Assembly: GCA_050948785.1 (NCBI GenBank)
Contig: JBMNEM010000002.1
Span: forward strand, 193,721 to 257,720
Length of the DNA: 64,000 nt
Direction: 5' to 3'
Origin: Dethiobacteria bacterium
GTDB lineage: Bacteria; Bacillota; Dethiobacteria; DTU022; UBA8154
The notes beneath the pieces were generated by a model. The model was given only the letters and a program-made list of their open reading frames with translations, made no database searches and had not been told where the DNA came from. This document shows positions 5,245-58,742 of the stretch, one piece after another (the stretch's first letter is position 1; each line of letters opens with the position of its first letter). Made by a program: the position numbers and the translations under genes.

Positions 5245-5435
5245 ATTCACATACACCTTTGCACGGAAGGCTTGTGGAAAACATTTACCGGGCAGGTCTC
5301 CTGGCTTGCAGCTCATCACTTGCTTTCACCTTCCCGAAGAGGCTCTCCAGTGGCATATAATGAAAGTAAATTCCCTGCTTACAGTGGCCGGACCACCCGG
5401 GATTTTCACCCGGTTCCCTTTCAACCCGATTTGGC
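5245..5435 (-). promoter_or_regulatory. Cobalamin (AdoCbl) riboswitch 1
   Basis: The reverse complement contains AAAGGGAACCGGGTGAAAATCCCGG ... GCCACTGTAAGC ... ATGCCACTGGAGAG ... GGGAAGGTGA ... AGCCAGGAGACCTGCC, i.e. the GGTGAAAATCC core plus the B12 box GCCACTG. It is upstream of DUF2292 gene 1 and the SLH/DUF4430/ECF operon. Confidence 0.8.
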
Positions 5436-5559
5436 ATCGGATCTACCCTGATAAAACCTTTATTCAATTTTTTAAATTAAACTTCAACCTTATTTAAAAA
5501 ACGGAAACACTATTCCAGTTTAAAATTGGAATAGCGCCTCCGTTGTTCGGTCAGCACCT

Positions 5560-5724: not shown

Positions 5725-5905
5725 CAAGTTAAACACCTCTCTATTTCCCGTAGAGTTTCTGGTGCAAAAAACAGGCAGGCTTTCTGGCTTCGGGTCATCG
5801 CTCTCCCCCACCTTCCCGGTTTCCCAGTGGCATTCCGGGGGAAACTTCCCCTTTTACAGCGGCGGAACCGCGCGGGATTTTCACCCGCTTTCCTTTTACC
5901 GGCAT
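5725..5905 (-). promoter_or_regulatory. Cobalamin riboswitch 3
   Basis: The reverse complement contains GGTGAAAATCCCGCGCGGTTCCGCCGCTGTAAAAGGGGAAG...AATGCCACTGGGAAACCGGGAAGGTGG...AAGCCAGAAAGCCTGCC. No separate terminator is present, so control probably acts at translation. Confidence 0.75.
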
Positions 5906-6093
5906 GGACTATATTCCAGTGCATACTCCTGACCGGCACCTGTTTATGAAATAATCTTCAATTAAGAACATAATATCCCAACAGCCCCCTCTTGTCAATA
6001 ACCGGTTCTCCCCCATCTAAAAGCCTTTGGGGCTGCCCTTGTATTAAAGAGCAGCCCTTTAGCTGTGTCAGCATATCTGTATAGGCGGAAAAA

Positions 6094-9904: not shown

Positions 9905-10080
9905 CCAGACCTTTGCACGGAAGGCTTGTGAAGTATCGTCAAGGCAGGTTTCCTGGCTTGTGGCTCATCGTAGCTTTCACCTTCCCGGATAGCTCCAGTG
10001 GTATGCTGAAAGCTGCTCCCCACTTACAGTGGCCGGACCACCCGGGATTTGCACCCGGTTCCCTCTTCCACCCGCTCCTG
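9905..10080 (-). promoter_or_regulatory. Cobalamin riboswitch 2 (paralogue of riboswitch 1, about 85% identical)
   Basis: Same aptamer sequence as 5245-5435 (GGTGCAAATCCCGG ... GCCACTGTAAG ... GCCACTGGAGCTATCCGGGAAGGTGAAAGC). A terminator-like hairpin at 9820-9862 follows it on the minus strand. Confidence 0.8.
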
Positions 10081-10149
10081 TCAGCGGATCACCTTGACAA
10101 TGTTGTTTTAAATATTAATTTTAGAAGATACTTTTCAATTTTTCCATAA

Positions 10150-10420: not shown

Positions 10421-11185
10421 TCACATGTCTTTGAAAAAATCTAAAAAAGCCTTCGCTTCAGCTGTAAAGCCGTAAGCTTCGCTGACCAGGGCAATTTCCG
10501 GGTTGCCCTGCAGCAGGCGCAGCCCGGAAAAATCGATCTCCCCACGGCCCGGGGGAAGGTGTTCATCATCTATCCCGCAATTATCATGAATATGCAGGTG
10601 TGCCAGATGCTCCCCCAGCAACCGGATCCACGCTCCCAGGGTAAGCCTGGAAGAGAGATGGGCATGTCCCGTATCAAGGCAGGCCCGGAAAAGAGAATCA
10701 TCAAAAATTTCCAGCAACCGGCTAATCAATTCCGGGTTTGGATCCCAGACATTTTCCAGAACAATCTTGATCCTTTCCCGCTGGCAGAGGGGCAGAAATC
10801 CTTCCCAAAAACGGGTGGCGTTCTCCAGCCAGTTATCGGCATACTCCGGATACTTAAAAAGCGGATTATAACAGGAATGCACGACCATTACCCGGCAGCC
10901 CAGTTCTTTGCCCAATTGAAGCGCTTGGGCAAAGCGCCGGTGGGCCAGTTGCTGTACCTGGCGATCCATGCTGCTGGGAAAGAGCTCTTTAAAAGGACCG
11001 TGCAGGGAAAGGGTCCCCCGGAAGTCCTTCAGCAATGCCTGATACTGCCTGACAATTTCACCCGCATAGTAATCCAGGTTAGCGGGAAGAGCAAAATCCT
11101 GGATCTCCAAATGGTCAAAATGGGTCAGGTAAAATGACGGTTCCTTTTTCAATAAATCGAGAAAAATGCCGCAACCCAGCTTCAT
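10421..11185 (-). CDS. Sugar phosphate isomerase/epimerase (xylose-isomerase-like TIM barrel)
   Basis: 254 aa with a TIM-barrel pattern including ...VVHSCYNP..., ...IVLENV..., ...GHAHL.... Family assignment is by overall resemblance. Confidence 0.6.
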   Translation of the reverse strand: MKLGCGIFLDLLKKEPSFYLTHFDHLEIQDFALPANLDYYAGEIVRQYQALLKDFRGTLSLHGPFKELFPSSMDRQVQQLAHRRFAQALQLGKELGCRVMVVHSCYNPLFKYPEYADNWLENATRFWEGFLPLCQRERIKIVLENVWDPNPELISRLLEIFDDSLFRACLDTGHAHLSSRLTLGAWIRLLGEHLAHLHIHDNCGIDDEHLPPGRGEIDFSGLRLLQGNPEIALVSEAYGFTAEAKAFLDFFKDM

Positions 11186-11319
11186 GCAAAACTCCTTTTA
11201 ACTCTTTTGTAAAACAGAATTGGAAACACTTAAAAAAAGTCTTAAAAAAAGCTGCCAAGGCACCGAACGTAAAAATTTTTCTAGAAGAATAAGTTTCCCT
11301 ATAAAAATCATACTGGAAA

Positions 11320-11470
11320 GAGCCATATTCATTCTTTTTTAGCTGTACAAAGACCGACGTCGTCTTTTGCCCACACGGTGATCTCTCCCTGTCGCTGAAA
11401 ATTTTCAGTTCTTGTGCGGAAGCTACATCAGGCCCCTCCGGCCGGGAAATCCTGCCAATGATCGTAGGCA
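11320..11470 (-). pseudogene. Remnant of an SLH-domain surface protein gene (3' fragment only)
   Basis: The product ...IIGRISRPEGPDVASAQELKIFSDRERSP... matches ...IIGRVLRPEGSEGAAAQELGIFSDRDEIAVW... near the C-terminus of the 6094-9564 protein. Nucleotide homology to 6230-6340 is also evident. Confidence 0.5.
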
Positions 11471-14400
11471 TTACCTTTTATATTTTCAACAGCGATGATG
11501 ATCTCACTCCGCAAGTCTTTTATTCGTTGCTCAATACGCTCTAAATAATCATCGCCCAAAAATCGCCGAAGGGTTTCCAACTCGGCACGGAAACGTTTCA
11601 TTCCCCTTTTGGAAACTTTTCCATCCATTTCTTCTATCGTCAGCCGGCGTAAGGTATACTTTGGTAAGGTCTGGTACTCCTTTAAATCGCGCAGCAGGGT
11701 TTGAATAAAGGGCAGGTATTCTTCCAAATCGGCAGCATGCTTTTCCCAGGCACTGCGTAGGTTGTTTTCGGCCTTGACAAGCAAAGATTGTTCACTGGGG
11801 CGCATGTGTATTTGCTCACGGTAGTTCTTGATTGCCTCGTAAGCGGGCCAAAATAAAGGACTTAGGGTCTCGCGGGGCGTTTCTGGCCAGCAGTGAACAC
11901 ACGGCAGCGCTTTTTCAAGAATTAGGGGACGTACCACTGGCTTTTTGCTTGCCGTATCAGGTACGGTGTGGATAAAAAGCTGCAAACCTTTCCGGCGGAA
12001 GACCAGCAGTTCATTTTGTTTGGCTATTTTCGCCGTTTTCACCCTTGCGGGAAAATCAGCCAGCCCGGAGATCAAGTCCGGGTATTGCGCCTGCATTGCA
12101 AAAAATTCCCGCCGGAGCGTCGTCAGCAGGCTTTCCTCTTCGCCTTCCTCCGGATTACGGTTGATGCGTCTGAAAAGTTCGGCGGGGGAAGGGGTTTCAT
12201 CCGGAGCAAAAATTTTCGCATCTTCACCCAGGGTATTGTGGATCAAGAACATCTTCTGTGCTGCTATTTCACGGCTTTTAACCACTTCAGCGCCCTGTTC
12301 CGTTGGAAAAAAGTTATAGATATACAATGTCCGGAAGACCTTGCGCCCAATACGGTTGATGCGTCCCAGCCGCTGAATGACACGCGTAGGGTTCCAGGGA
12401 ATATCATAGTTAACCACCGCACCGGCCCGGTTCAGGTTTATCCCTTCAGAAAGTTTATCAGTAGCCACGAGGATATCGAAATCATCACGCTGCCTTTCTG
12501 CCGCATGGCCGGCATCGAAATTGGCATTCAGATCATCGAAAAAACCCTTGCCCAGCGAACCTTCAGCTACCAGCACACGTTCAGGAAAGGCGGCCTGCAA
12601 AACGGGGGCAATGTGTTTCACTGTATCCTGATATTCGCTGAAAATAACAACCTTGCGGCGCGGTTCACCGCTACCGGGTTGGGCTTCTATAATCTCCCGC
12701 ACAGCTTCCACAAGGCGTTTGCTTTTCGGATCGTTCACTGCCAGTTCCAAAGCCTCCACCCGATCGGCAATTTGTTGGAACAGCTCCAGATCTGAGCGGA
12801 TATCCGCAAGGAACTGTTCCGGTTCATCAAAATCTTTAATAACATAAACGTGATCCTGGTGCGGCCTCAGGTTTTTTTCTGCCGCCAGGCGCGCCGCGAA
12901 TTGCCGCAGCTCCTCCTCGATGGTTTCTTCGTCTTCTTCCCAGATTTTTTCTATTAAATTTCGGTCCAGAATATATTGGCCTGTTTTTTGGATGAAAGCC
13001 AAAATAATAGAATGAACGCTCCTAAAATTAGCCATGCTTTTGACAAAAGCGCCAAAGGAACTTTCGAAACGTTTGACCAACAGCCGGCGCATAAATTCGT
13101 ACAGGTTGCGCTGCTGCAGGTAGGCAAAATTACCCTTTTCATCCAGCTGTTCTAATTCACTGCTGTGTTCGTAAGCAAAGGGCTGGTAAATGGCACCCCG
13201 GAATTGTCCTTCCTCGCCGAAATATTCATTAATTACCTGGTTGTAGAAAGCCGATTGTGCGGTAGTTAGTTCGTAAAACAGCTCAACGGGATCGGCAACC
13301 CCGGAGAGCTTGGCAATTTCCTGGGCATACACCGGATCGCGTTTCAGGTCGAGCCGGTTACGGCGGATGATAACAGGTTCTATAACCGCACGGATTTCAT
13401 CTGCCAGCTGCCTTACCCGTTGCTGGGTGCGAATTACATTGATAGGCGGCGGGGTTTCAAAAATATCGGTATAGAATCTTTCAGCCCGGGCTTGTTTTTC
13501 ACCACCGGCGCTGTGGTAACGGAGGATGTATGAAAGCTTGCGGAATTCACTATTGTACCGGGCAAAGCGGGCAGCCAGCCCTTCATCAAGGGTCAGCGTT
13601 GATTTGCCCGGCGGGATAAAAAGTTTGAGCAGGGCAAAAATATCTGCCGGCGCATTGTTGAAAGGAGTTGCCGTCAACAGGATAACACCCCGGTTGGCAC
13701 AGATCTGGCTTAGGCGTTCATAAGCCGCCGTGTCTTCATTGCGGAAGCGGTGTGCCTCATCCACCACAATAGTAGTGACCTCCTCGCCGTACATTTCAAG
13801 ATATTCCTGTACCTTGTCCAAAGCCCCCAGGGAATAGACTTCCCAGTCATATAGTTCAAAGTCGTTCAGGTATTTATACCAGCCGGTAGCTTTGGTTTGT
13901 CGATCACCGATCAAAGCCGGGGGGCAGATCACAAGCCCGCGGCCACCTCGTTCCCGCGCCAGCCAACTGGCGATCACCGATTTCCCCAGCCCAACCACGT
14001 CGGCCAAGATCACGCCGCCATATTCCTCCAGCACGGTGAGCGCCTGCTGCACGGCCTCTTCCTGGTAACGATACACCCTGTAGCCCCGTTCTTCCATTAA
14101 ATGTTTAATCTGCGGGCGAAGCACTTTTTGTTCCATCAAATCCAGGTAGGTTTTAAGCACCAGGGCGTAAGCCTCAAAAGGCGAAATTCCCGCCACCTGG
14201 GTTTGCCGATTGATGATACGGACAATCTGCTCCTTGCGTTCATCAAGTTCGCTAAGCGGGATAGCTGTCGACCACAGATCGTCAAAATATGCTTCCGCAT
14301 CTCCCCAACCATAATCGCTGATTTCCACGTTGAATTCATGCTGCCCCAACAAACCGGCGCGGGTCAGATTGCTGGAACCGGTAATAAAGCGCCCGGGCGC

Positions 14401-14857
14401 ATCGATGAGTGATTGCCCGGCCTCATCCAGGCGGAACAGGTAAAGTTTGGCGTGGTTGGGATCCAATGTTTTGCGGATATGCAGACGGCCCTCTTCCAGA
14501 AGATGCAAAAAGAAAGAAACCTGTCCATAAAATTCTTGCGTATCCAAGGCTTCATCTTGCAGCGCAGTGCGCAAAGAGGCAAAGAAGCGCCCCACAAGTT
14601 CCTGCTGGGTGCTGCCGGCTGCCTCTGGATCGGCCACCTCCAACACCCGGCCCAAACGCAGATCGGTATCCATCCCCACCAGAATTTTGAAGATGCAGGT
14701 CATCGCTGCGCCCCTTTAGCGCCTCATAAAGCTCCCGCCAGCCGGAAAAATAGAAGAAACCCACCAAAAATTTCAGTTCCCGGCTATGCTGGATGAGCGT
14801 ATGAATGCGGCCTTTAAGACTGCGTTGCCTGGCGTTGGTGATGAAATTTTTAGCCAT
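11428..14857 (-). CDS. PLD-family nuclease (HKD) fused to an SNF2/DEAD-like helicase; one apparent frameshift near 14700
   Basis: The N-terminal piece MAKNFITNARQ...LKFLVGFFYFSGWRELYEAL (14857-14700) continues in another frame as ...HAKLYLFRLD...GSSNLTRAGL (HKD motif). Helicase motifs I (DVVGLGKS), II (DEAH) and later motifs follow. The total is about 1140 aa. Confidence 0.7.
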
Positions 14858-17800
14858 TACGCCTCACGCTCCTTGCTTTGCTGATGCGCTCCCAGACTAA
14901 CTGGCAGACGGCCCGGTAAACTTCCTTCCGCTCCTCTTCAGTCAAGTCCAAAGCATCGAAGACAAGATCGTCCAGCGCCTTGCGATCGGGCAATGGATTG
15001 GGTTCCTGTTCGGCAATGGGGATCTTAGACTGAGGATCGATGCCGCATTCGGTAAAAATAGAAACAACTGGCCTTTGTTTTAATCGTAAAAGTATATCCT
15101 TAACCTGGTTTCCCCAATTAACTGCCAAGTTAGGTGACAAAACTAGTTGTTGCTTTACTTCGTAGACCATAAGACTCCTCGGCCCCCCACCTCCGCCATA
15201 CTGTCTTGCTTTTATTTCGTCAGCAAGAATTGAAACAACAGAATTTAATATAAGTTGAACAGACTGTGTTACAGTTGCCGCATATAGTCTGCAATCAGCC
15301 AACAAGGGTTTTGTTGAAGTGAAAACAGCGATCCTTTCCCTAAGTTCCTTTCCCCAAAAAACGTTTCCCATTTCATTAGGGACAGACCACCACCGTGGAC
15401 GGGAATTGCAAGTTGGTCGCTTAGAATACCCTTGTTTTTCTCCCCATTTAATATACGCCAAGGCCTTTGTACCCTTTAAATCTTTTTTGCTTTTATGGCA
15501 CATAAAGATACGGTATTTAAAATCATCCTGTTTGATCACGACACTGCGGCATTCGCGCGGGCTCTTGATAACCGGCTTTAAAAACTCTTCCTCGATTTCC
15601 CCTTCCCAGCCGGCACCGTTGCACACCCGCAACAGGCCCGGTTGTGAACCGGGGCCCAGCGGCTCCAGGTAGAAAAAGTCGTTTGCGCCGGTTTTTATAC
15701 CGAAACGCACTTCTGCAATCTCCCCCAAACGCACCAGCTTGTCCTTGCCCTTTTCCAGGATGGTGAAAAAGATATCCGGTGCACGCAGGTATTTGCCGCC
15801 CCATTTATCGCCTTTGTATTGGCCGGGGTCCTGGAGCCGGGATGAAACCTGGCCTGCATCGGAACCCTCCCGCAGCAGCTCGCCTGCTGTAACCGGCAAG
15901 ACGCGAAAACTTTCATCCCGTAATGCAGCCCCGGCCTCTTCAATGGCCAACAGGTTTTCGGAGAGCACCGCTTCCTCAAAAGGCTGTTTGAAAGCCACAA
16001 AGCGTGTCAGCTGGTTTTCATTTACCTTTGCAGGCGCACCGGCAACGGTGATAATCGTATTGATATCGGCACGGGTGAAGGAACGGCGGGCGTGATTGTC
16101 GATCACCAGGTGAAGCGGTGCCCGCCGCAGAAAAAACTCCTGCAGCCAGGAACCATAACCGACATCCAACCAGGAATTGGAACAGATGAAAACATGCACC
16201 CCCCCGGAATTAAGCAGACGCAGGGAGCGGATATAAAAATAAGTATAAAGATCGGAGCGGCCGCTTGGTTTGCGCCCCTTTCCGAACCGATCAGGTCGCG
16301 TTTGTGACAAAGCAAAATATTCGGGAAAATCAAGACGTACCATCTCCAGCAGGGCATCCTTATATTCCTTGGGGGTTAACAGCTCTTTGGGGTCGGTAAT
16401 ATTTTCCTGGCGCACATAAGGCGGGTTGCCGATGATGATGTCAAAACCTTCAGAGATCGAAGAAGATCTCGGCAAATTCGATGCTCCAGATGAAGGGACG
16501 CTTACTTTTCAGGCTTCTTTTCTGGGCCTGCAGTTCGGCAATTTCAGCTTCCAAAACGGCACACCGGACCGCTGCCTTTTTTGTAAGAACCGGTTCAGCT
16601 TGTTCCGGCCTTGTTTCTTTCATGCCAAGTTGTTTGGGCTTCAGACTTTGTATTTGCTTCCGGCGTGTATCAATTTCCGCCTCCAGGATATCCCGGAAAA
16701 CAGCCAGTTCTGCGTGCTCGATAAGGTGCGTAATCGTCGCTTTTGTTGTGGAAAATAATCACGCTTTCTTTGTTTAAGCCGGGTGACCCTGCGCTTGATT
16801 GCCGGCGGCAAATTGTCGTGGCCCTGCACGGGAAAGGTTTTGCCGCCAACGCGCTGCACCAGTGAATCGCCGGTGCGCACCTTGAAGGTTAAATTGGGCA
16901 GCAACGGCTCTTAACGAGCTTCGGTCTTCTTCAGGCATGTCCACAAAAAGGGTTAACCACAGGCGCAGTTGGTTAATCCACACCGCCCAGCGTTTGGTTT
17001 CCACACCGTAAAGGGAATGGGCGATGATGTCTTTTTTTCGCTTGAAGGGGGTAGGTTTCGCAGCCTTTAAATCCCCGGGGGTATTGTTGCGGGAATAGAG
17101 GTTTTCCAGCACCTGTTCCAGTACCTGCAGCATACCCACTTCAAAAGCCCCGGAGCCGGCCGCCGGGTCGCACACAGTGACCCCTTCCAGCTGTTCGATC
17201 AATGTTCGAATTTCAGCGGGGGAAAAGTCGCCCTGCTTCTGGTATTCGTCATAGGCCTCACCGGTGCCGGCTTCGCGGAAGAAAAGGCGGTAGTAGGTCT
17301 CTCTTTTCCGATTTCGGTAGTTTGCTCCAGCCATTTGACCAAGGCCAGGCGGCACATCAAATCCACTTCCACCCGCGGTGTATAGACTGCCCCCTGATCC
17401 ATATTTGTGATACGCTCGAAAATAATACCTAAAAATTCGGGATTTAGTTCTAATTCCTCATCATAGAGCTCATTTTCTTCCACTGTAAAGTTGTACTGGA
17501 AGAGGAAATCAAAAAAATCGTCGATGAGGTCATCGGGAACAAAGAGCCCCCGATCATCTACTGCCGGGCTTACGTTTAAACAGCTCCCCGTTCAGGTAAG
17601 GGCGCCATCCTGGAGCGCTTCTCGGGTCTCTGTAGAGAACGGTGCATTTCCATAAGCCACCTTACGCCCATATGGCGAACTAAGTGCCTCAAAAAAAAGG
17701 GGTTCCAACCATTCCCGGTAGAAAGTGCCGGCAGGGCCGGCCTGCCGGTACTCCTCCCAAAAGTCCTGCAGGAATTTAGTGTTGTCTGCCAGCCAGCCCT

Positions 17801-18458
17801 TCTTTTGTACAAAGCCCAGAAAAATAATGCGGATAACAAAAAGCAGGGCAAAATCCAGTTTTAGATCCGTGTCGTCAGTACCTTGCACAGCACCGGCGAT
17901 GGCATCAAACCTGGGCTTAAAATCCTTGTAAAATTCATCTGAAACGGCTTCAAGTGAGAAGGTTCCCAGGATCCCGGCGAGCGTTGAAAAATCGGCACGC
18001 TGCATCTGCTGCAAAAAAGTCTTGTTGGGGAGTTCCGGATCAACGAAAAACGTATAGCGCCGGAAGGTGCTAAATTGCCGCTTCGTGCCATGGTATGTGA
18101 CCGTTATTAATGAAAACCGAAAACACCCGGCATTATCATAAAAGGCAAAAATACCGGCATTGTGATTGCCGGACTTGAGGATACGTTTGGCCAGATCGTA
18201 CTGTTTGCGTTTACCTGTACGGGCGGTAAGCTCCTTTTGAACATACACGGTGCCTATAATAAGGGTTTTACCATCTGAAAATTCAACCACGCCGATCTGT
18301 TCCGCCCTGCCAAAGGAACCATCTTCCTGGGGGGATTTTTTAATAGGAGTCCGCACCGGCCTGAAAGAAGGCGCTACATGACGTAAAAGGTTAACCAGTA
18401 GTTCATTTGCAAACCCTTTACAAAGTTTTTTCCATTTCACTAACATCGCACCATCCAT
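14850..18458 (-). pseudogene. Large gamma-class N6-adenine DNA methyltransferase (type IIG/IIL or PglX/DrmMI-like), broken into at least five reading-frame fragments
   Basis: Fragments in order on the minus strand: an N-terminal domain (18458-17592); ...GAVYTPRVEVDLMCRL... (17483-17199); motif I DPAAGSGAFEVGML (17355-16774); RTGDSLVQ (16904-16641); and an intact 541-aa C-terminal ORF with IIGNPPYVRQE (motif IV) and a TRD-like tail (16475-14850). Its stop overlaps the helicase start. Confidence 0.65.
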
Positions 18459-18792
18459 TTCTTTGCGTAAATTAAAGTTTGACTATTCGGTATAATCTCG
18501 CAAGAAAATCACCTTTCTCGCAGGCTGCATGAACTATACGGTTTTTTCTCCCCTGTGGTAAAACGCGGCGGATCTGGGTTTAATGTATCGCTAACATACC
18601 TCACCAATATTTCAGCAAGCAGATCTTTTTGGCAACCGGTAGTCAATAGCTTCTTTTGGGGGGTTGGCCTGCGGGGTTCTAAACCAATATTATCTATTAA
18701 TGCCCATTATTGTCAAGCCTTCCCTTGTTTAAAACTGTGAACTGTAAAATTGTGCAGTTTAGCCGAAAACTAGGATAAAGGGTTTTAAGGCG

Positions 18793-20148
18793 GTGAATGG
18801 CATGGCTGAAGGCATCAACAACCTTCCATTATTTTTACGGGGTAATGTGGAATGTGCCCCTGTATTAAGGATCAAAACCGGTCAGATCTTGTCCGGCCTA
18901 GTTTTGGAAGTACACGCTGATAAAGCTGTCCTCCTTTTGCAGGGTGTTAATGTGGTGGCAGAACTGGAAACCGGGATAGTGCCCGGGGAAAGAGTTGTGC
19001 TGCAAGTTGAAGAGTTGACACCAGATAGGAAGATTTTACTAAAAAAAATGGACTCGGCGGGAAGCAGACAAAATATTGAGCAGCAGGAACTGGAAGCCAT
19101 TCTGCAACATTTTGGTCTACAGTATGGAAAGCTTGAAAAAGCCATTGTGGCACAGTTGCTCCGCAACAAACTGCCGTTTTCTCGGCAGCACCTTCATCAC
19201 CTGACGGGCTTCGCCGCCGCAAACAACCTTTCCCCTGAAGAGGCGCCTGCACTTGTCTGGTTATGGTCCAACAACCTGCCGCTAACCCGGGAAACTGTAA
19301 CTGCCATCCACAATTTAATGGAAAACGGGCCGGATAAGTCTTCCCTACAGGCCTTTTTTGATGCCTTATCCGGGAATTTGGAAACCGAAAATATAAATTA
19401 CCGTCAACTTTTAAAAACTATCGAAAACCTGCTGGTTAAAGGCAACGCTGCCCCGGAAACAATAGCCGATCAGTTAAGCACCTTGGGCGAAAACCTGGGG
19501 TTAAATTATGAACATGCCTCCCTGCAACTTGAAGCTTTGAGGGAAAAACATGGCTTGGAGAATGCGGCAACAACCCTGGCGGAAAAAGAAAAAATCGAAA
19601 ACTCTTTAAAATATCGCCTGTTAAAACTTGGGCAGTCTTCGGAAACCAAAACAGCGGCCGGCCGGGGGGAGCCTGTTTTGAAAATGCTGGAGGAAATCAC
19701 CGGTTTGCAGCTGCTTAATATCGCCGGACAGCAGGAATCAGTAGCAAGCACCAGTTATTTTTTGGCAAACTGGGCTGCCTTTCCGGACGAAAAACTGTTG
19801 CCCCTGTTCCTTAAAATTAAAAAACACCACCGGCACCAGGATGACCAGGAAAACATCCTTTATCAGATTTTTTTCTTGCTCAACACCCGGCACCTAGGCC
19901 AGGTAATTTGCCGCTTGGCCCTAAAGAAGGAATGCCTAACCTGCGGTTTTACCGTTGAATATAAGGAAGGAAAAAAATTAATGGATGCTTATTTAGGGTT
20001 TTTAAAACAAAGGTTGGAGCATCTGCCGTGGAAGATCGTGATCTATCCCACCAGGGTAAATTCGTCCGAGGACATCAGGCGTGCATGGCGGGAAGAATTT
20101 TTTGCAGGCGGCCCCGGCAGAGTAAGAATATTGGACGCACGGGTCTAA
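18793..20148 (+). CDS. Hypothetical protein, possibly a FliK-like hook-length control protein
   Basis: 451 aa with no strong motifs. Clostridial genomes often place a FliK-like gene directly upstream of a FlhB C-terminal domain-like gene. This is a context-based guess. Confidence 0.3.
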   Translation: MNGMAEGINNLPLFLRGNVECAPVLRIKTGQILSGLVLEVHADKAVLLLQGVNVVAELETGIVPGERVVLQVEELTPDRKILLKKMDSAGSRQNIEQQELEAILQHFGLQYGKLEKAIVAQLLRNKLPFSRQHLHHLTGFAAANNLSPEEAPALVWLWSNNLPLTRETVTAIHNLMENGPDKSSLQAFFDALSGNLETENINYRQLLKTIENLLVKGNAAPETIADQLSTLGENLGLNYEHASLQLEALREKHGLENAATTLAEKEKIENSLKYRLLKLGQSSETKTAAGRGEPVLKMLEEITGLQLLNIAGQQESVASTSYFLANWAAFPDEKLLPLFLKIKKHHRHQDDQENILYQIFFLLNTRHLGQVICRLALKKECLTCGFTVEYKEGKKLMDAYLGFLKQRLEHLPWKIVIYPTRVNSSEDIRRAWREEFFAGGPGRVRILDARV

Positions 20149-20163
20149 AAAGGAGTGAGGTAA

Positions 20164-20485
20164 ATGGATAAAAAAGGAAAGATGCCGGGAATTAAATACG
20201 CTGCAGCCCTTAAATATAAAGAAGAGGAAAATAATGCACCCCGTATTGTGGCTTTCGGCAAGGGTGCACTGGCGGAGAAAATTATACAGGTGGCCCGGCA
20301 AAACAATATTCCTTTCCACGAGGATCCCGAACTCGCCTGTGCTTTAAGCAGCTCTGGAGATCGGGCAGGAAATACCCTTCGAACTTTACCAGGCCATCGC
20401 CGAAGTGCTGGCCTTTGTCCTGTATTTGGGACAAAAGCCCTCCGGTAAAATATTGTTTTTAATCAGGAAGGAGATTATTCCATAA
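20164..20485 (+). CDS. FlhB C-terminal domain-like protein (EscU/YscU/HrcU family, YlqH-like), apparent frameshift near 20345
   Basis: N-terminal part ...APRIVAFGKGALAEKIIQVARQNNIPFHEDPELA.... The conserved C-terminal LEIGQEIPFELYQAIAEVLAFVLYL is only recovered in the +1 frame. Confidence 0.55.
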
Positions 20486-20620
20486 TCAAGAAATAATAAA
20501 GAATACCAAAAAGTGCTTCATGCCATCATGACAGCACCGGCAGGACGAATGCAAATACCGGCCTGCATATGCGCCGCGCGCCGCGTATTCTGCGACGGCC
20601 AACGGAAAGGATTCCTGAAA

Positions 20621-23600
20621 ATGATTACCGGACAAAAAATCATCTCTCTGTTAAAGAAAATGCTGCAAAGCCCCGTCCTTCGCTCTGCCGCACCATATCT
20701 TGGTTTCTTCCTGATGACCGCTTTCTTTTTGTGCATCTTCGCCCGTATCGGCGGGCAAAGTCACTTGGGACCGGAACCTGGAAGCTCAGGCAGTTCTCCT
20801 CCTTTGACCGGGGCAGCGGAAAGCAACCTGAAAAACGATTATTTTCTGAGCGTGCTGCTTTTAACCCCGAAGGGACAAAATACCCAGAGCGCTGCACAGC
20901 ATCTGCAGCAAGCACTGCTCCCCAATGTAGAAATCGAAATGAAAACATTAAATGAAATGCCGGAACTTACGCCGGGCAGTTATGATTTCATCTACCTGGA
21001 AGCCGGGCTCTCCAACGACCAACTGTTCACTGCAGCAAAAGAACGCCTCAGTGCTTATGTGCAAGCAGGGGGCGTGCTTTTTTTAACGCAGGAGTATATT
21101 GACCATTTCCCCCGGGAATTCCTGGGCATCAGCAGGGTGGAGCGCATAAAATCCCCGCAAATGAATTTTTCCTACCCTTCCGTGCGGGGCAACCTGGCCG
21201 GGCTACAGGAAGTCTGGCGCTCCTTTGCCGAGCTTTATGGACATTATGAAGGCCTGGAACCCGCCTATTATACCGCCTGTGATCTCAGGGCCGCAGCCGG
21301 CACCGCTGTTCCCTTGGTGGAGCAGGAGGGCCTGGCCTGTCTGCTGGCCCATGATCTCGGGGAGGGTCTGGTTCTCTGGTCCAACGGCTTTTTACCCGGC
21401 GAGTATTTTGTGACCAGGTTTGATTTTGTTCCCACGGGAGAGCAGCCGTATTTTCATTTCGGCTCTGCCAGCGCCAACTACCTTTTTCGTCAGGAGTTAT
21501 TAAACCTGGTTTCCAAAGAAAAATACGGCTTCAGTTTAAAGAAAAGTTATGGCCCTTACGGCCGGCCGGGCCTGGCCTGGCAGAATCATTATGAGGAGAT
21601 CTCTTCTTTTCCCTCCCGCGATATGATCAAATGGATCGATCTTTTGGCCGCTCATGATCAGATCCCCACCTTTTCCCTCATCCGGGGAAGTTTTCAGTGG
21701 GGACAGTGGCAGAGCAGTTTAAGCATCCATCTAAACGAAGGCACAGACAGTGAGCCTGTTTTCCGGGGGACAACGGATAATTGCTTCTATTCAGCCGGGG
21801 AAAGGCTGGCCGGCGCGGACAAATACCTTCTTTTCTCCACATACCCCCTCTACAAAACGCTGCTCTCAGAAATTGAGCAGCCCTGCCGGCCCTATCCGCA
21901 GCTTCGTCGACTGGAACGGCAGCGGCCAAAAAGACTTGCTTGTGGGCACGGCGGAGGGAACGCTCCATCTGCTGAAAAATACAGGCACAGCAGAACGGCC
22001 CCGTTTCCAGGCGGCCCAGCCCCTGACCACCGCGGCAGGAAGTATTTTGGCCGTAGAGAGCCACGCCGCGCCGCTGGTTTATGATTATAATGGCAACGGG
22101 CTCCTTGACCTGCTCGTCGGTGACGGTGCAGGCAGAATCACCCTCTTTTTAAATACTGGCAGTGCTGGCCAGCCCCGTTTCGCCCCGGCCGGCTTTCTTC
22201 AAGCCGGGGGCAAGGTTTTAAAAACAGCCGGTGCCGCGGCGCCGTTGATTGTTGATTGGGACGGGGATGGCCAGCCTGATTTACTCGTCGGGGAAAGCAG
22301 CGGCAAGGTTATTTTCTTTCCGGGGTCGCCACTCAACGGGAAACTCAATTTTAAAGCGGGGCAACCGCTGCGCCATGCGGCCGGAGAGGTGCAGGTAAAC
22401 TCCTTTGCCGCCCCTTTGGCCGTCGACTGGAACAACAACGGCCGGTTGGATCTGCTTGTCGGCAGCGGAAAAGGGGAGATCAATCTTTACCTCCACCAGG
22501 AGACAGGCGAACTGTTGGATACAGGCAGCATTACCGCCCGCTCCCCCAACTTTTTCGGCAGCAGCACGCTCAAACTGGGACATAACGCCGTCCCCCTCGT
22601 CCTGGACTGGAACAATGACGGCAAAAAAGATTTGCTGACCGGACAGCTGGAATACGGCATTCCTTGCCCGATCGACAGCCCTTCCTTCCCCTACCCCCGG
22701 GAACTCCGCGAGAACCTGCGCTATGCCCGGGAGCGCCAGATCCCCATCATCCCCCACCTTTTCCTGCACGAGTTTTTAAGTACAGAGCAGGAAAAAAGGG
22801 AAGTCGCGCTGCATAAAAAAGCTTTTCAAGCCGTGGGCCTTCCCTGGGAGGACGACACCGGCGCCAATCACCATACCTGGCGCATCTCCAGGGATAATCC
22901 CCTGGGGACTTTCCACAATTTAAAACAGGCCGGTATCTGGTGGGATTTCGGCTTCAGCCCTCCGGGCAGAGTGGGCGCCCCCCGGGACGGAAAGAATTTT
23001 TTAATGGTCATTCCTTTTGCCCTGCCCGGGGAAAATTCCGATGCGCCTTTTCTCCTCTTCTCGCCGGCACCGGATTTGCTGAACTTTCCTTATGCCTGGG
23101 ATGTTCTTGCCCGCTTTGATCTGCCTGCCACATACTTTGAGCACATTGAACATTGCCTCGATCCTGACGGAACAATCTATCCTACATTGTTGCAGAAGAT
23201 CGCGCTGCTGAACAAATTTAAAGATCAATATGAATACAATTTTATGACGGAGGAACAGATGGCCCGCGCCTTCTTAAACACCTTTTTTGCCGGTGTAAGC
23301 GTGGAGATCACCAACGGGAAACAGCTGCGGCTTATACCGGATTTTGCCCCGGTACCTGCCCAGGCAAAAGAATACCGCGGCACGCTCGGCCTGAAGATCG
23401 AACTGGGGGAAGCCCTGCAGGGAAAAGAGCTGGATACTTCCGGCTTCTTCTACCATCAAGCGGCGGAGGGGGATTACTATCTCGGTCTGGAACAGCCCCT
23501 GGACATTCATTTTGTCGAGCAGTCCAGCCGGCAGAAAAAATGGCACATCGTCCGCACCAACGGCCCGGTGGAGATCGAGGCAACGGGGGATAACACTTTT

Positions 23601-39261: not shown

Positions 39262-39670
39262 CTGCCACAAACACCCGCCACAAGGACCGTCCGAGACCAC
39301 TGAAAAACTATGTTTTTTTTATTTATCATTTTAAAACGAAATTGAGGAGTCTGATGTTTTCAATGGTTTAGGGATCCTTCGCTATTGCTCAGGATGACAA
39401 AAGGGACTTTTTCAGTGGTCTCGGACCGTCCCCGCGGTTGGTGCCCGCGGCTGGGTGCCCTTGGCTGGCCCACCACCGCCCCTTGACCGAATCGCCTGTC
39501 CTAATGCCGGGTAATGCCGCACCCGGCTGCGCCTCAGCCAATTAATGCCTGACCGCTCCTTGGGCTACCCAGTCTACCATGGGAATCCGCGGGATCACGG
39601 GAACCGTCCCTCCGGTTGCCGCGGCTACACCTGCCACAAGCACCGTCCCCGCGGTTGGCCCAAGCCCAAT
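39262..39670. repeat. Cluster of GC-rich 25-mer repeats (CCACAAGGACCGTCCCCGCGGTTGG and variants), including a 24-bp inverted repeat (39283-39306 against 39405-39430) that encloses an AT-rich ~100-nt loop
   Basis: GGACCGTCCGAGACCACTGAAAAA ... TTTTTCAGTGGTCTCGGACCGTCC. The same 25-mer family occurs at 42720-43000, 43780-43850, 44250-44330 and, in reverse orientation, at 58405-58505. Confidence 0.7.
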
Positions 39671-42712: not shown

Positions 42713-42790
42713 CACCCCCGGAGCCCCGCGGTTGGTACCCGCGGCTGGTTCCCTCCGAGACCGTAGGATTTCCCCAAGATAAAAAAATAA

Positions 42791-42995
42791 CGGCAATGGT
42801 TTTAGCCATACCGTTAACCTATCCCATAAATTATTCCTAATGAGAGCCACCATTTCCGGCTCTCTTTTTCCTTCCACTATATACAGCAAGTTCAGCTTTC
42901 CCGTTTACCAGCCACAAGGTACGTCCCCGCGGTTGGTACACCACAAACACCCGCCACAAGGTACGTCCCCGCGGTTGGCCTGCCCGCGGTTGGCC
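42791..42995 (+). repeat. Composite repeat unit A (CCATACCGTTAA box, terminator-like hairpin GAGCC...GGCTCTC + T-run, then 2-3 GC-rich 25-mers)
   Basis: Unit shared with 43690-43850 and 44171-44330. Confidence 0.6.
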
Positions 42996-43214
42996 TTCGA
43001 ATCGCCCGTTACCCCCTTCCCTTTAAAGTTGACTGGTTGCCTATCTCCACATCTCGTAGAGATAGGCGGGAGAATGCCGCCGCGGCACACGGTTGATGCG
43101 GCAGCGCCGACAGGTTGGTCCAGGCCGGGATAGTATCTTTTTGAATTTTCATAACACTCAAGGAACGGGGAACAGATTGTGTTTTCTCTACCAGTGTGGT
43201 AAGATACCTTTGAG

Positions 43215-43420
43215 TTGCTGAATGCACAGCAACGAAATTGAATAGTGAAACGATGTGAGTGAATGGAAAGTGGGTGAAAGTCCCACACAGTCGCCGCTGC
43301 TGTAAGCATTACACGCGCTTATCATTATGCCACTGGAGAAATATTTACTCTGGGAAGGCGGTAAGTGTTAGATGCGAGTCAGAAGGCCGGCTCTCATCGG
43401 TTTGTCAGACCTTTCGGTGC
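43215..43420 (+). promoter_or_regulatory. Cobalamin riboswitch 4 (plus strand), orphan: no ORF downstream
   Basis: AATGGAAAGTGGGTGAAAGTCCCACACAGTCGCCGCTGCTGTAAGC ... TCATTATGCCACTGGAGAAATATTTACTCTGGGAAGGCGGTAAGTG...AGTCAGAAGGCCGGC parallels riboswitches 1-3 (GGTGAAA.TCC core, GCCACTGGAG...GGGAAGG). ORF 43259-43552 merely overlaps it. Confidence 0.65.
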
Positions 43421-43689
43421 AAAAGGACTGTCAGGATCAAGGTGTTCCCGTTTACCGGGAAGAGGCTTTTCGTAGCTACCAGGCGGAGGCTACAGGATAA
43501 TAACAATCCTGCTTTCTTTAAGCAAAAGAAGGTAGGATTTTTTTATCACTGATTTTCAGGAAAAGAAAGTTCGTATGGATGGCATACAGGAACTTTGATG
43601 AACAAGGCAGAGAATAATACGGTGTTAATGAAAATGGCAGCGGAGTATTGATAGAACATAGGATGACAAAAAGGAATAACAACATAATT

Positions 43690-43850
43690 TGACCATACCG
43701 TTAAACCCATATGGGAGCCACCTTACTGGCTCTCCTTTTTTTCCTGCCACTGTATACATGGCAGGTTCAGCACACACCAGCCACAAGGACCGTCCCCGCG
43801 GTTGGGACCGGAACCAGCCACAAGGACCGTCCGGGACCAGTGAAAAAGTC
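43690..43850 (+). repeat. Composite repeat unit B (best-preserved copy: GGGAGCCACCTTACTGGCTCTCC-T7 hairpin, CTGCCACTGTATACATGGCAGG hairpin, two 25-mers)
   Basis: See units A and C. Confidence 0.6.
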
Positions 43851-43949
43851 CCTATTAAATCACGTTAACACGTTAACACGTTAATAAGGGCAACCCCAAT
43901 CCAAAACCAAAAAAGGCTTTCCAAGCATTGTTTTTGTAGGTTTTTCAAC

Positions 43950-44012
43950 AAAAAACCCCCATAAATGGTATAATAGGTACGACCAAATACCGACCATTAG
44001 GGGGTTTTTTCA
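43950..44012. terminator. Bidirectional intrinsic terminator-like hairpin (A6-CCCCCATAAATGG...CCATTAGGGGG-T6)
   Basis: G/C-rich stem flanked by an A-run and a T-run. It lies between the plus-strand riboswitch region and the 3' end of the minus-strand V-ATPase operon. Confidence 0.4.
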
Positions 44013-44170
44013 TGCTTCGACTAGAGCCAAAGCAATTAAGTTTTCACTCATCATTATACAATAAAATTCCGGAAAATCATATACTAAAAAAGGTGGAATC
44101 AGTAGTGGACTTTAGTTTTATCAATGGTTTGTTAAAAAGATACCTATTGTAAAGAATTTGGGCGACCTGC

Positions 44171-44330
44171 ATAGCCCTGGCTATACCGTTAATTGCTTAT
44201 GAAACTACCATTTCCAGCTCTCTTTTTTCTGCCATTGCACCAACCACAAGCACCAGCCACAAGGACCGTCCCCGCGGTTGGGCACCAACCACAAGCACCA
44301 GCCACAAGCACCGTCCCCGCGGTTGAGGGG
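44171..44330 (+). repeat. Composite repeat unit C (degenerate hairpin, two 25-mers)
   Basis: CTATACCGTTAATTGC...CCATTTCCAGCTCTCTTTTTTCTGCC...AGCCACAAGGACCGTCCCCGCGGTTGGG...AGCCACAAGCACCGTCCCCGCGGTTGAG. Confidence 0.6.
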
Positions 44331-44359
44331 CGACTGCCACTGCACAGGTACATTTCCGC

Positions 44360-45004
44360 CTAAACTTTGGCCCGCACAATGTCTTTAATTTTCATCAACC
44401 TGGTCAGGGCAGCGCGCTCGCTTTCATCCAGTTTCATCGTAATATAGCGGACGGTCTCCTGCATTTTGGGAATCATAACATGCTCCAAGGCATTGACACG
44501 CCGGCGTGTCTTTTCAATTTCATCTGCCAAAAGCTGGACGGCCTTTTCCAGTTCGGCCAGCTCCATTAATTTCGGCATAATTCCCGCAAGGGTTTCAATG
44601 GAAGCATCTAAATCAGCAGAAGTGCCTACAAACCCGTAGGGGTAGATGTTGCTCTCCTCCCCCCGGGTACTCGCCTCCTGTTTCCAGGATAAACGCGGGG
44701 CATAAACACTCATAATGTTCTGCCTCTCTACCGTCAGAGAGATACGTGCCGTCGGGTACATCAGCGCTTCCTCCAGCACCTCTGTAGACATGACAGCGCG
44801 TGCCAGCAAAAACTTGGCCATGGCCGCTGTCAACTCTGTTTCAATTTGTTCACGCAGTTCCTTGTTTTTTCTCACCCGCTCTAAAAACTGGCGAACAAGT
44901 TCGTCGCGTTTATCCTTGAGTAGCTTATGTCCCCGCAGAGCCATATCCAGCCGTTTCTTGAGTTGGTTAAGTTCCATCCGCGTGGGGTTTACCCTGATTT
45001 CCAT
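44360..45004 (-). CDS. atpD: V-type ATP synthase subunit D
   Basis: 214 aa. MEIRVNPTRMELNQLKKRL...KLLKDKRDEL is the canonical V/A-ATPase D N-terminus. Confidence 0.85.
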   Translation of the reverse strand: MEIRVNPTRMELNQLKKRLDMALRGHKLLKDKRDELVRQFLERVRKNKELREQIETELTAAMAKFLLARAVMSTEVLEEALMYPTARISLTVERQNIMSVYAPRLSWKQEASTRGEESNIYPYGFVGTSADLDASIETLAGIMPKLMELAELEKAVQLLADEIEKTRRRVNALEHVMIPKMQETVRYITMKLDESERAALTRLMKIKDIVRAKV

Positions 45005-58404: not shown

Positions 58405-58505
58405 ATAACAATTTTTGCATCCCCGCGGGTGCAACCGCGGGGACGGTCCTTGTGGTTGGTCCTTGAGCCAGCCGGGCCAGCCGCGGGGACGGTCCTTGTG
58501 GTTGG
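58405..58505 (-). repeat. Two copies of the GC-rich 25-mer repeat in reverse orientation (CCAACCACAAGGACCGTCCCCGCGG...), intergenic between tsaC and larC
   Basis: Reverse complement of CCACAAGGACCGTCCCCGCGGTTG, present twice. Confidence 0.7.
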
Positions 58506-58742
58506 TCCTTGCGACTGATCAGGCCTCAAGCATAATTTTTGTTGGATATAAACAGCCTTAGCCGGCGTTCATTATCATAACCTGTGCGGGCCTGCTCTAA
58601 ACTTGCCGGAATCCCAGAAAATTTTCAGGCCCCCAAACATTCATTACAAGAGTGGCAAATCAACAATATTATGTTAACTATCAAATCTGGTGTTTTTAGC
58701 AGCTGTTTGATTACGACTATATTGTACTAGGTGGGAATACAC

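Follow-up and report, generated by a model that had tools for sequence, protein, structure and literature searches.

REP-type repeats, an IS1182-family stump, an orphan cobalamin riboswitch and a triplicated terminator module: a probable mosaic between ldh and the V-ATPase operon of a Dethiobacteria bacterium

Repetitive extragenic palindromic (REP) elements and the REP-associated tyrosine transposases (RAYTs) that accompany them have mainly been described in Proteobacteria, with Cyanobacteria and Clostridia appearing in passing in those portions of the literature considered here; within the same portions, Group 1 RAYTs in Clostridia are noted (PMC5581495) and Firmicutes are otherwise unmentioned. 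The transposase TnpA-REP acts on single-stranded REP hairpins containing mismatches, and strand transfer can build tandem bacterial interspersed mosaic elements (BIMEs; PMC3333891). REPs are also among the targets of insertion sequences (ISs) of the IS3, IS110, IS4, IS5 and IS256 families, a list which does not include IS1182 (PMC1525189), while for a class of REPs tagged with CGTC no associated transposase was reported, nor any occurrence in Firmicutes (PMC3733652). The present analysis concerns a 64,000-nucleotide stretch of a Dethiobacteria bacterium genome (contig JBMNEM010000002.1; hereafter the window) and, in particular, an intergenic island between ldh and the V-ATPase operon, whose GC-rich 25-mers are read, on comparative sequence grounds, as REP elements of a REP/RAYT-type system.

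The island occupies the roughly 1.65 kb between the ldh stop (42712) and the V-ATPase D stop (44360, minus strand), ldh (plus strand, an open reading frame (ORF) of 316 amino acids (aa)) and the V-ATPase operon (minus strand) being convergent around it. In a preliminary description of this DNA the island had been presented as built from three composite units of about 150 bp (A, B and C), and the common order of box, terminator-like hairpin with T-run and GC-rich repeats in all three is confirmed by alignment; the units, however, span just about one third of the island, the 25-mers are not peculiar to it (further copies lie at 39277-39660 and 58429-58507), and two features had been overlooked, namely a cobalamin riboswitch (43240-43409) and the left end of an IS1182-family element with a transposase N-terminal pseudogene (43833-44171). 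The three units are not one kind of thing. The island is probably a mosaic in which REP-type repeats, one of them with an IS1182 stump lodged in it, are combined with an orphan riboswitch and a terminator module triplicated on the spot; it would represent an old, rearrangement-prone intergenic junction which has gathered four kinds of sequence. The earlier statement that no credible ORF spans the units holds, no island-internal ORF having a Pfam family match.

The window contains eight complete 25-mers and two that are interrupted, distributed over six intergenic sites, and none lies in a gene; their 16-mer core occurs 10 times against 0.11 expected over the 64 kb, and repeat motif searches returned 10-13 occurrences, at six intergenic sites, against 0.1-3.2 expected. 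A covariance model (R1) detects the eight complete units and nothing beyond them (bound E = 0.5), although seven of these eight belong to its own training alignment, the remaining one being a duplicate of one of the seven. Tandem Repeats Finder gives arm repeats of 13-15 bp, CACGTTAA in three copies and, in unit C, the 45-bp doublet; the tandem spacing of REP units is 37-45 bp. The REP features of the window are the following:

39277-39441, minus strand: REP unit split by a 130-bp MITE (a miniature transposable element bounded by inverted repeats), with tandem arm copies following up to 39468
39628-39660, minus strand: REP unit outside the island (R1 37.2 bits)
42724-42751, minus strand: two tandem REP arm copies CCCGCGGYTGG (13-bp period), just past the ldh stop
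42906-42938, minus strand: REP unit with variant apex GGGGACGTACC (R1 36.6 bits, E 2e-8; unit in the R1 training set)
42948-42996, minus strand: REP unit (42948-42980) accompanied by one further arm copy of 15 bp (R1 33.4 bits)
43775-43807, minus strand: REP unit (R1 40.3 bits, E 2e-9)
43813-43832, minus strand: left half of a REP unit, ACCAGCCACAAGGACCGTCC, severed at the apex by the IS end
44251-44328, minus strand: two REP units as a 45-bp tandem repeat, directly 3' of V-ATPase D (tandem-repeat score 171)
58429-58507, plus strand: two REP units oriented the other way, between divergent genes (R1 41.0 and 41.7 bits)

A degenerate copy is also found at about 39596-39625.

The strand complementary to GCCACAAGG folds into a G·U-rich hairpin of 13 bp, CCAACCGCGGGGA-CGG-TCCTTGTGGCTGG, with a CGG loop. 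In an alignment of 25 units from seven sources, 83.7% of the pair cells are paired, compared to 71.2% in shuffled alignments (none of 500 reaching the observed value) and to 44-53% when the partners are slid; four outer pairs switch between CG, GC and AU, while the inner pairs are constantly G·U and the apex GGGGACGG shows hardly any variation. With RNA parameters the hairpin strand folds at -16.2, -13.1 and -10.0 kcal/mol, versus -12.1, -5.7 and -2.4 kcal/mol for the complement, with z = -2.3 to -3.4 on one strand. Related Bacillota share the apex GGGGACGGTYC and their outer stems covary, while the CCGCGG part is not conserved; across loci, background GGGACG sites have stems of 0-6 pairs and repeat units mostly 7-16, a few decayed ones being shorter. 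A plausible side effect concerns the two units after V-ATPase D, whose sense orientation may endow the operon's mRNA with two strong 3' hairpins and thereby define or protect its end.

The family extends outside the window. A scan of a genome collection, from which the source species is apparently absent or present only in fragments, gave single intergenic copies of the 25-mer in contigs of two further metagenome-assembled genomes (MAGs; L007 and L008), but not the whole composite, and scans of viral contigs gave no copy of the 25-mer. In L037/L038, whose V-ATPase D is 86% identical, TACACAGAAGAACCGTCCCCGTGTGCTC stands directly after the V-ATPase D stop, inverted doublets being included; L042 carries the version GAAGCAGCAGAACCGTCCCCATGCTTC, and L043, L044 and L045 each have further variants.

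It is in these relatives that a candidate enzyme is encountered. L042, reached through a homolog of the island's transposase stump, encodes a protein of 258 aa which matches PF01797 at 50 bits and has the REP-associated tyrosine transposases (NF047646, 76.9 bits) as its best family match; its sole match in the PDB is E. coli TnpA-REP (4ER8), with the HUH (NHIHLL) and tyrosine (RYIHQNP) motifs aligned. Source records give the name RayT or REP-associated tyrosine transposase to some of its homologs, and its homologs on plasmids are at no more than 35% identity. In L042, L044 and L045 the stop of the RAYT-like gene is followed, at a distance of 5-250 bp, by REP units which have this apex in common; indeed, both of the only two units in the 20.8 kb of L044 are found at this gene, and one of two in L045. 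Because relatives share the apex, covary in the stems and adjoin RAYT-like genes, the 25-mers are read as REP elements. The earlier suggestion of miniature mobile elements thus survives for the 25-mers, which are dispersed, intergenic, form covarying hairpins and have RAYT-like neighbours in relatives, but not for the whole 150-bp composite (see below).

By analogy, and given the adjacency in relatives, a RAYT-type Y1/HUH transposase would act on the folded single strand and copy the REPs; this is a mechanism proposed at the level of the family, RAYT activity in the genome of the window being putative. Strand transfer, slippage or unequal exchange would subsequently generate the head-to-tail arrays and the doubled arms. 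Single REP arms are tandemly duplicated, with periods of 10-15 bp, in three species, which agrees with the building of tandem BIMEs by TnpA-REP strand transfer (PMC3333891); in L042 the duplication consists of GGGGAAGCAT in three copies. Duplicated arms are located as follows:

Window: 42724-42751, 42968-42996, 39431-39468 and 44237-44267
L042: 3733-3760
L037: 6740-6800

The motif GAATCGCCYGT follows the REP arm repeats at 43003-43013 and at 39487-39497, either as part of a longer tail that the copies of the element share or by chance. As for the genomic setting of the transposase, in three loci the RAYT-like gene is found directly downstream of a Mg-chelatase/ComM-like gene which is itself in part duplicated or decayed:

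L044: 8537-10777, RAYT/ComM-like neighbourhood
L045: 6418-10792, RAYT/ComM-like neighbourhood
L042: 4554-6033, RAYT/ComM-like neighbourhood

Since this neighbour recurs in three unrelated loci, a conserved chromosomal position of the RAYT clade is suggested; no Mg-chelatase/ComM-like gene was found by tblastn in the window or in the conspecific contigs.

The apex which is conserved among the repeats is also the point at which an IS has entered them. The two elements concerned are:

43833-44171, plus strand: IS1182-family remnant (PF05598 homologs, tblastn)
39293-39422: MITE of 130 bp with perfect 15-bp terminal inverted repeats GAGACCACTGAAAAA

The remnant opens with the left inverted repeat GGGACCAGTGAAAAAGTCCC (43833-43852; left-end sequence GRGAYCASTGAAAAAGTCCC) and continues with a promoter-like TCAACA-18-TATAAT and a leader hairpin within 43925-44010; a transposase N-terminal pseudogene follows from 44012, which begins MLRLEPKQLSFHSSLYNKIPENH, is frameshifted and loses homology after the GRPA codons at 44171. 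The element is thus incomplete, consisting of a left end and about 53 codons, the right end being absent. The stump peptide matches annotated IS1182-family transposases by tblastn, its homologs P0001-P0009 bearing PF05598 (DUF772), while the 46-aa stump ORF by itself has no Pfam match. The microsatellite (CACGTTAA x3, at 43861-43884) and the 'bidirectional terminator' earlier placed between units B and C do exist, but both lie inside this fragment, the A-run/T-run hairpin belonging to the IS remnant itself.

The second 25-mer of unit B stops at ..GGACCGTCC (43832) and abuts the IS end. The MITE, whose ends match the IS1182-type left end at 43833, is flanked by a target duplication of 9 bp, again GGACCGTCC, at 39284-39292 and 39423-39431, and a consensus REP reappears when the MITE and one copy of the duplication are removed in silico. 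Since the duplicated 9-mer is the hairpin apex, the cuts fall symmetrically on either side of the loop. The junction ..ACCGTCC followed immediately by GRGAYCWSTGAAAAAGTC is identical at both window sites and in L037, L042, L043 and L009: in L037 CACAGAGAAACCATCC is followed by AAAACCTCTGAAAAAGTCCCC, in L042 GAACCGTCC by GAGACTGGTGAAAAAGTCAC, and in L043 (Alkaliphilus peptidifermentans) AAAACGTCC by GGGATCAGTGAAAAAGTCCCC, with an intact local REP 250 bp off. In the viral-contig scan, L009 is a genuine related IS end, at the contig edge; that one excepted, IS-end matches in viral contigs are as many as expected by chance. The near-palindromic apex GGACSGTCC is probably the preferred target of an IS1182-family element which makes a 9-bp target duplication: one insertion left the truncated IS in unit B, and a derived MITE split the REP at 39.3 kb. 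Insertion at the apex explains both why unit B has a severed 25-mer and why a transposase stump occupies 43833-44171. L037 has the stump beside V-ATPase D as well (74% nucleotide identity), the order of the flanks being equal, so that, judging from the sequences, insertion and truncation probably predate the split of the two lineages. The homologs of the transposase N-terminus are all short (57-83 aa; P0001-P0009 and L042 4001-4252) and break at codons 45-70 or so, the break in L042 being joined straight to the REP half GGACGGTTCTCCTGCTTC; no full-length copy was recovered among the homologs, N-terminal stumps only. Left-end stumps may arise recurrently, and some could be mere contig ends.

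The remaining part of the three units is a module of about 90 bp, made of the box and the terminator-like hairpin, each of the three copies being followed by a REP array:

42778-42905, plus strand: module of unit A (profile 90.5 bits; fold -27.8 kcal/mol, z -3.0)
43668-43774, plus strand: module of unit B (profile 82.9 bits)
44172-44246, plus strand: module of unit C, degenerate, with box CTATACCGTTAA and stem unpaired (profile 68.5 bits; z +0.16)

Within the 64 kb, three sites match the box CATACCGTTAA with no more than one mismatch, where 0.65 would be expected; all three belong to the island, and none of 100 shuffles yields as many. Unit A carries the box CCATACCGTTAA (42806-42817), a GAGAGCC/GGCTCTC hairpin with a 7-bp stem and a 9-nucleotide loop (42842-42864) and a T5 run (42865-42869); its hairpin is outside the sites reported by the terminator scan. 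In unit B the box (43693-43704) precedes a predicted terminator (43713-43744) which passes that scan, and a second hairpin, CCTGCCA..TGGCAGG (43743-43765), is kept in this unit alone, as previously described, being decayed in A and C; it has the operator-like form TGCCA-N9-TGGCA, centred on the palindrome TGTATACA. A terminator-like hairpin had been attributed to every unit, which is correct for A and B, folding with their T-runs, but not for the degenerate copy C. The 'unusual run of terminators' thus resolves into four hairpins of different kinds, namely the expression platform of the riboswitch, the 5' leader of the IS, the degenerate copy C and, in unit A, what is plausibly the ldh terminator.

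The three modules are clearly homologous and 25-35% diverged, whereas the REPs are nearly identical. No further copy was found by profile in the roughly 430 kb examined (window, conspecific contigs and related loci), the module being absent at every other REP site, and neither terminal inverted repeats nor target duplications bound it; a pattern scan for box plus terminator in a metagenome collection, apparently without the source species, gave 24 matches, all attributable to chance. The modules most likely result from local segmental duplication, possibly through exchange between the flanking REP arrays; copy A probably serves as the ldh terminator, and copy C has decayed. In L041, whose V-ATPase D is 87% identical and whose contig ends 90 bp past the stop, the segment 4463-4553 contains GCTATACGGTTAAT, a 13/14 match to the box of unit C (p ~0.02 by shuffling). 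Other origins were considered and rejected: descent of the box from decayed transposase codons (PELMCKLL) is not demonstrable, the sequence after GRPA having no significant similarity to the intact copies of L042 and L043 or to L037, and decayed IS fragments upstream in units A and B gave local alignments no better than shuffles.

The last component of the island is the only one to match a known RNA family:

43240-43409, plus strand: cobalamin riboswitch aptamer (Rfam RF00174, 82.1 bits against a gathering threshold of 31.5, model positions 1-189 in full)
43505 to about 43546, plus strand: intrinsic terminator past the riboswitch, 15-bp stem and T-run

In the Rfam E-value scan of the island, apart from the riboswitch, only terminator-driven noise (up to 27 bits) was obtained, and a known RNA family behind the units is accordingly rejected. 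By its position the terminator is read as the expression platform. No credible ORF is found downstream in the island and, because no gene follows, the riboswitch is an orphan whose gene has been lost. The earlier idea of stacked 3' ends of decayed genes is therefore partly borne out, by a riboswitch bereft of its gene and a truncated transposase. A transcript reading through from the orphan riboswitch would enter the V-ATPase operon at its 3' end, in antisense orientation. On the minus strand of the window, cobalamin riboswitches (98-120 bits) also occupy 5274-5465, 5757-5958 and 9926-10111; the first two of these three, about 290 nucleotides apart on the same strand and upstream of the ORF at 3175-4818, may form a tandem arrangement.

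The distribution of the island among strains and relatives was followed together with the operon gene that borders it:

44360-45004, minus strand: V-ATPase D, last gene of the operon

The V-ATPase D of the window also occurs on several metagenome contigs of the Joint Genome Institute (JGI), and the island is present in five independent, conspecific JGI contigs at 99-100% identity. Over 1.85 kb the sole indels among these five are one 45-bp REP unit (44265-44309, missing in strains L003-L006) and one 15-bp arm copy (42968-42982, missing in strains L003 and L005). A sixth contig, L002, is identical from 43993 rightwards and wholly different leftwards, where positions 10900-20645 hold AT-rich DNA with an IS21 element (istA/istB), a ResIII helicase and a type III restriction-modification methylase; it represents either a strain-level rearrangement with its breakpoint inside the IS stump or a chimeric contig. 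The relatives with 91% V-ATPase D identity (L047 and L048) are without the island, and in L047 a plain bidirectional terminator takes its place.

Several observations weigh against this reading of the repeats and of the modules. The copy count covers the 64-kb window, while typical REPs exceed 100 copies per genome; all the REPs of the window are head-to-tail, with one orientation per cluster and no inverted doublets of the BIME type or of the kind known as REPINs (REP doublets forming hairpins), although such doublets are found in relatives (L037, 6810/6858 and 8300/8335; L042, 6053/6103 and 7228/7280). A terminal GTAG or CGTC tag is absent, the conserved part being the apex; CGTC is invariant in the unit, but within the apex. 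With DNA energy parameters the fold of a single unit is no better than that of shuffles, and the 25 units used for covariation were partly selected by stem length and are non-independent within a genome. The L042 protein scores 76.9 bits against NF047646 ('REP-associated tyrosine transposase'), just below the cutoff of 80, and no RAYT gene was detected by tblastn in the window or the conspecific contigs. Finally, the local origin proposed for the modules is argued from their absence elsewhere in a small sample of the genome.

Among the alternatives, it could be held that the 25-mers are RNA elements, their hairpins being selected as stabilisers of 3' ends or as terminators and the adjacency to RAYT being incidental. 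The marked strand asymmetry under RNA parameters (-16.2 versus -12.1 kcal/mol) and the conserved G·U pairs speak for such elements, the V-ATPase operon has no plain terminator of the type found in L047, and the two REPs after V-ATPase D are in sense orientation (-49.7 kcal/mol over 101 nucleotides of the minus strand, z = -2.5), as are those after V-ATPase D in L037. However, the REPs of units A and B are antisense to ldh, those at 58.4 kb lie in a divergent promoter region, and those at 39.3-39.7 kb are antisense to both flanking genes, so that an RNA role cannot explain the whole family; moreover, recognition by a protein agrees better with an apex sequence that is kept in distant hosts and with the neighbouring RAYT genes of L044 and L045, and this explanation is unlikely. 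Recognition by a protein could also take place on double-stranded DNA, the repeats forming an array on whose palindromes, CCGCGG or GGACCGTCC, for example a regulator or nucleoid protein would bind. E. coli REPs are bound by IHF, gyrase and Pol I, and the tandem arrangement, the regular 37-45 bp spacing and the palindromic cores are compatible with such an array; yet CCGCGG is not conserved in relatives, the covariation of the arms preserves pairing and not sequence, and no candidate binding protein is linked to the repeats, which makes this proposal very unlikely. A CRISPR-like array was ruled out by the spacing and the lack of spacers.

A different possibility is that the whole composite of about 150 bp is mobile, a BIME-like 'portable terminator' cassette copied by RAYT or otherwise transposed, which lands at gene ends. 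Three copies share one internal order, each occupies a place at which termination would be of use, BIMEs of E. coli combine REPs with other motifs as mosaics (PMC2817692), and the weak 14-nucleotide box-like match lies near the V-ATPase D stop of L041; if this were true, a REP system of Bacillota would distribute functional terminators and the island copies would be successive landings. The search for flanking target-site duplications, however, gave none bounding the units, and terminal inverted repeats are equally missing; box and terminator are confined to the island in all the DNA compared, the metagenome scan having given chance matches only in a collection that apparently does not contain the species; REP arrays at 39.3-39.7 kb, at 58.4 kb and in L007, L008, L037 and L042 stand without the module; and copies 25-35% diverged are at odds with nearly identical REPs. 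A mobile cassette is thus unlikely, and the claim that the composite as such is a mobile element is not upheld. As to an artefact of assembly or tandem duplication, which had been raised as a simple explanation, nothing beyond the repetitive nature of the region speaks for it, and it is refuted, with a negligible probability left, by the recovery of the same island in five independent assemblies that differ by whole-repeat indels only and by the divergence of the units from one another. The mosaic therefore remains the probable interpretation of the island.

Some consequences follow for annotation and for the study of REP systems. The island-internal ORFs are to be treated as spurious, and the island riboswitch is unfit for inferring a B12-regulated gene; the REP repeats, whose array length differs between strains, may add to assembly breaks in MAGs of this type. 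For an uncultured Dethiobacteria-like lineage a concrete REP family becomes available, which points to a RAYT clade with many named homologs in Bacillaceae. Since the cognate repeats of this clade have one conserved hairpin apex in common, the apex, and not a terminal GTAG, may hold the recognition rule.

Compared with E. coli REP/BIME and Pseudomonas REPIN-RAYT systems, the repeats are likewise short, GC-rich imperfect palindromes, extragenic, dispersed and clustered; as in E. coli, the hairpin is strand-specific with non-Watson-Crick positions; as in REP-RAYT systems, copies flank a single-copy Y1/HUH transposase gene, in the relatives L042, L044 and L045; and, as for E. coli and Pseudomonas REPs, copy number varies between strains and the elements are targets of ISs. 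At variance with those REPs, they have a conserved hairpin apex, GGGGACGGTYC, instead of a terminal GTAG, and in the window, unlike E. coli BIMEs and REPINs, they are arranged head-to-tail and not in alternating or inverted order. The associated transposase is longer than in E. coli and Pseudomonas (about 258 aa) and has a C-terminal helix-turn-helix; its gene is downstream of a Mg-chelatase/ComM-like gene in L044 and L045 and has a decayed ComM-like copy upstream in L042. The host, moreover, belongs to the Bacillota, and the link to RAYT is known from relatives, not from the window's own genome. With the CGTC-tagged REPs (PMC3733652) the repeats share an invariant CGTC and a small hairpin, but CGTC is in the apex and not at the terminus, and the stems are longer. 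Integron attC sites are also strand-specific imperfect palindromes in direct orientation; an attC array was nevertheless rejected, there being no cassettes between copies (37-45 bp), no nearby integrase, scattered copies and no agreement with the R'/R'' consensus. An apex-conserved REP class tied to a RAYT clade with many Bacillota homologs is a modestly new point.

The same may be said of the homing of an IS1182-family element to REPs, whose apex it cuts precisely and symmetrically over 9 bp. The known REP-targeting ISs (IS1397 and ISKpn1 of IS3; IS621, ISPpu9 and ISPa11 of IS110; IS4, IS5 and IS256; PMC1525189) likewise enter at a fixed position inside the REP and in several independent hosts; unlike them, the element described here belongs to the IS1182 family, cuts the apex symmetrically, generates the 9-bp duplication GGACCGTCC and has a derived MITE of 130 bp.

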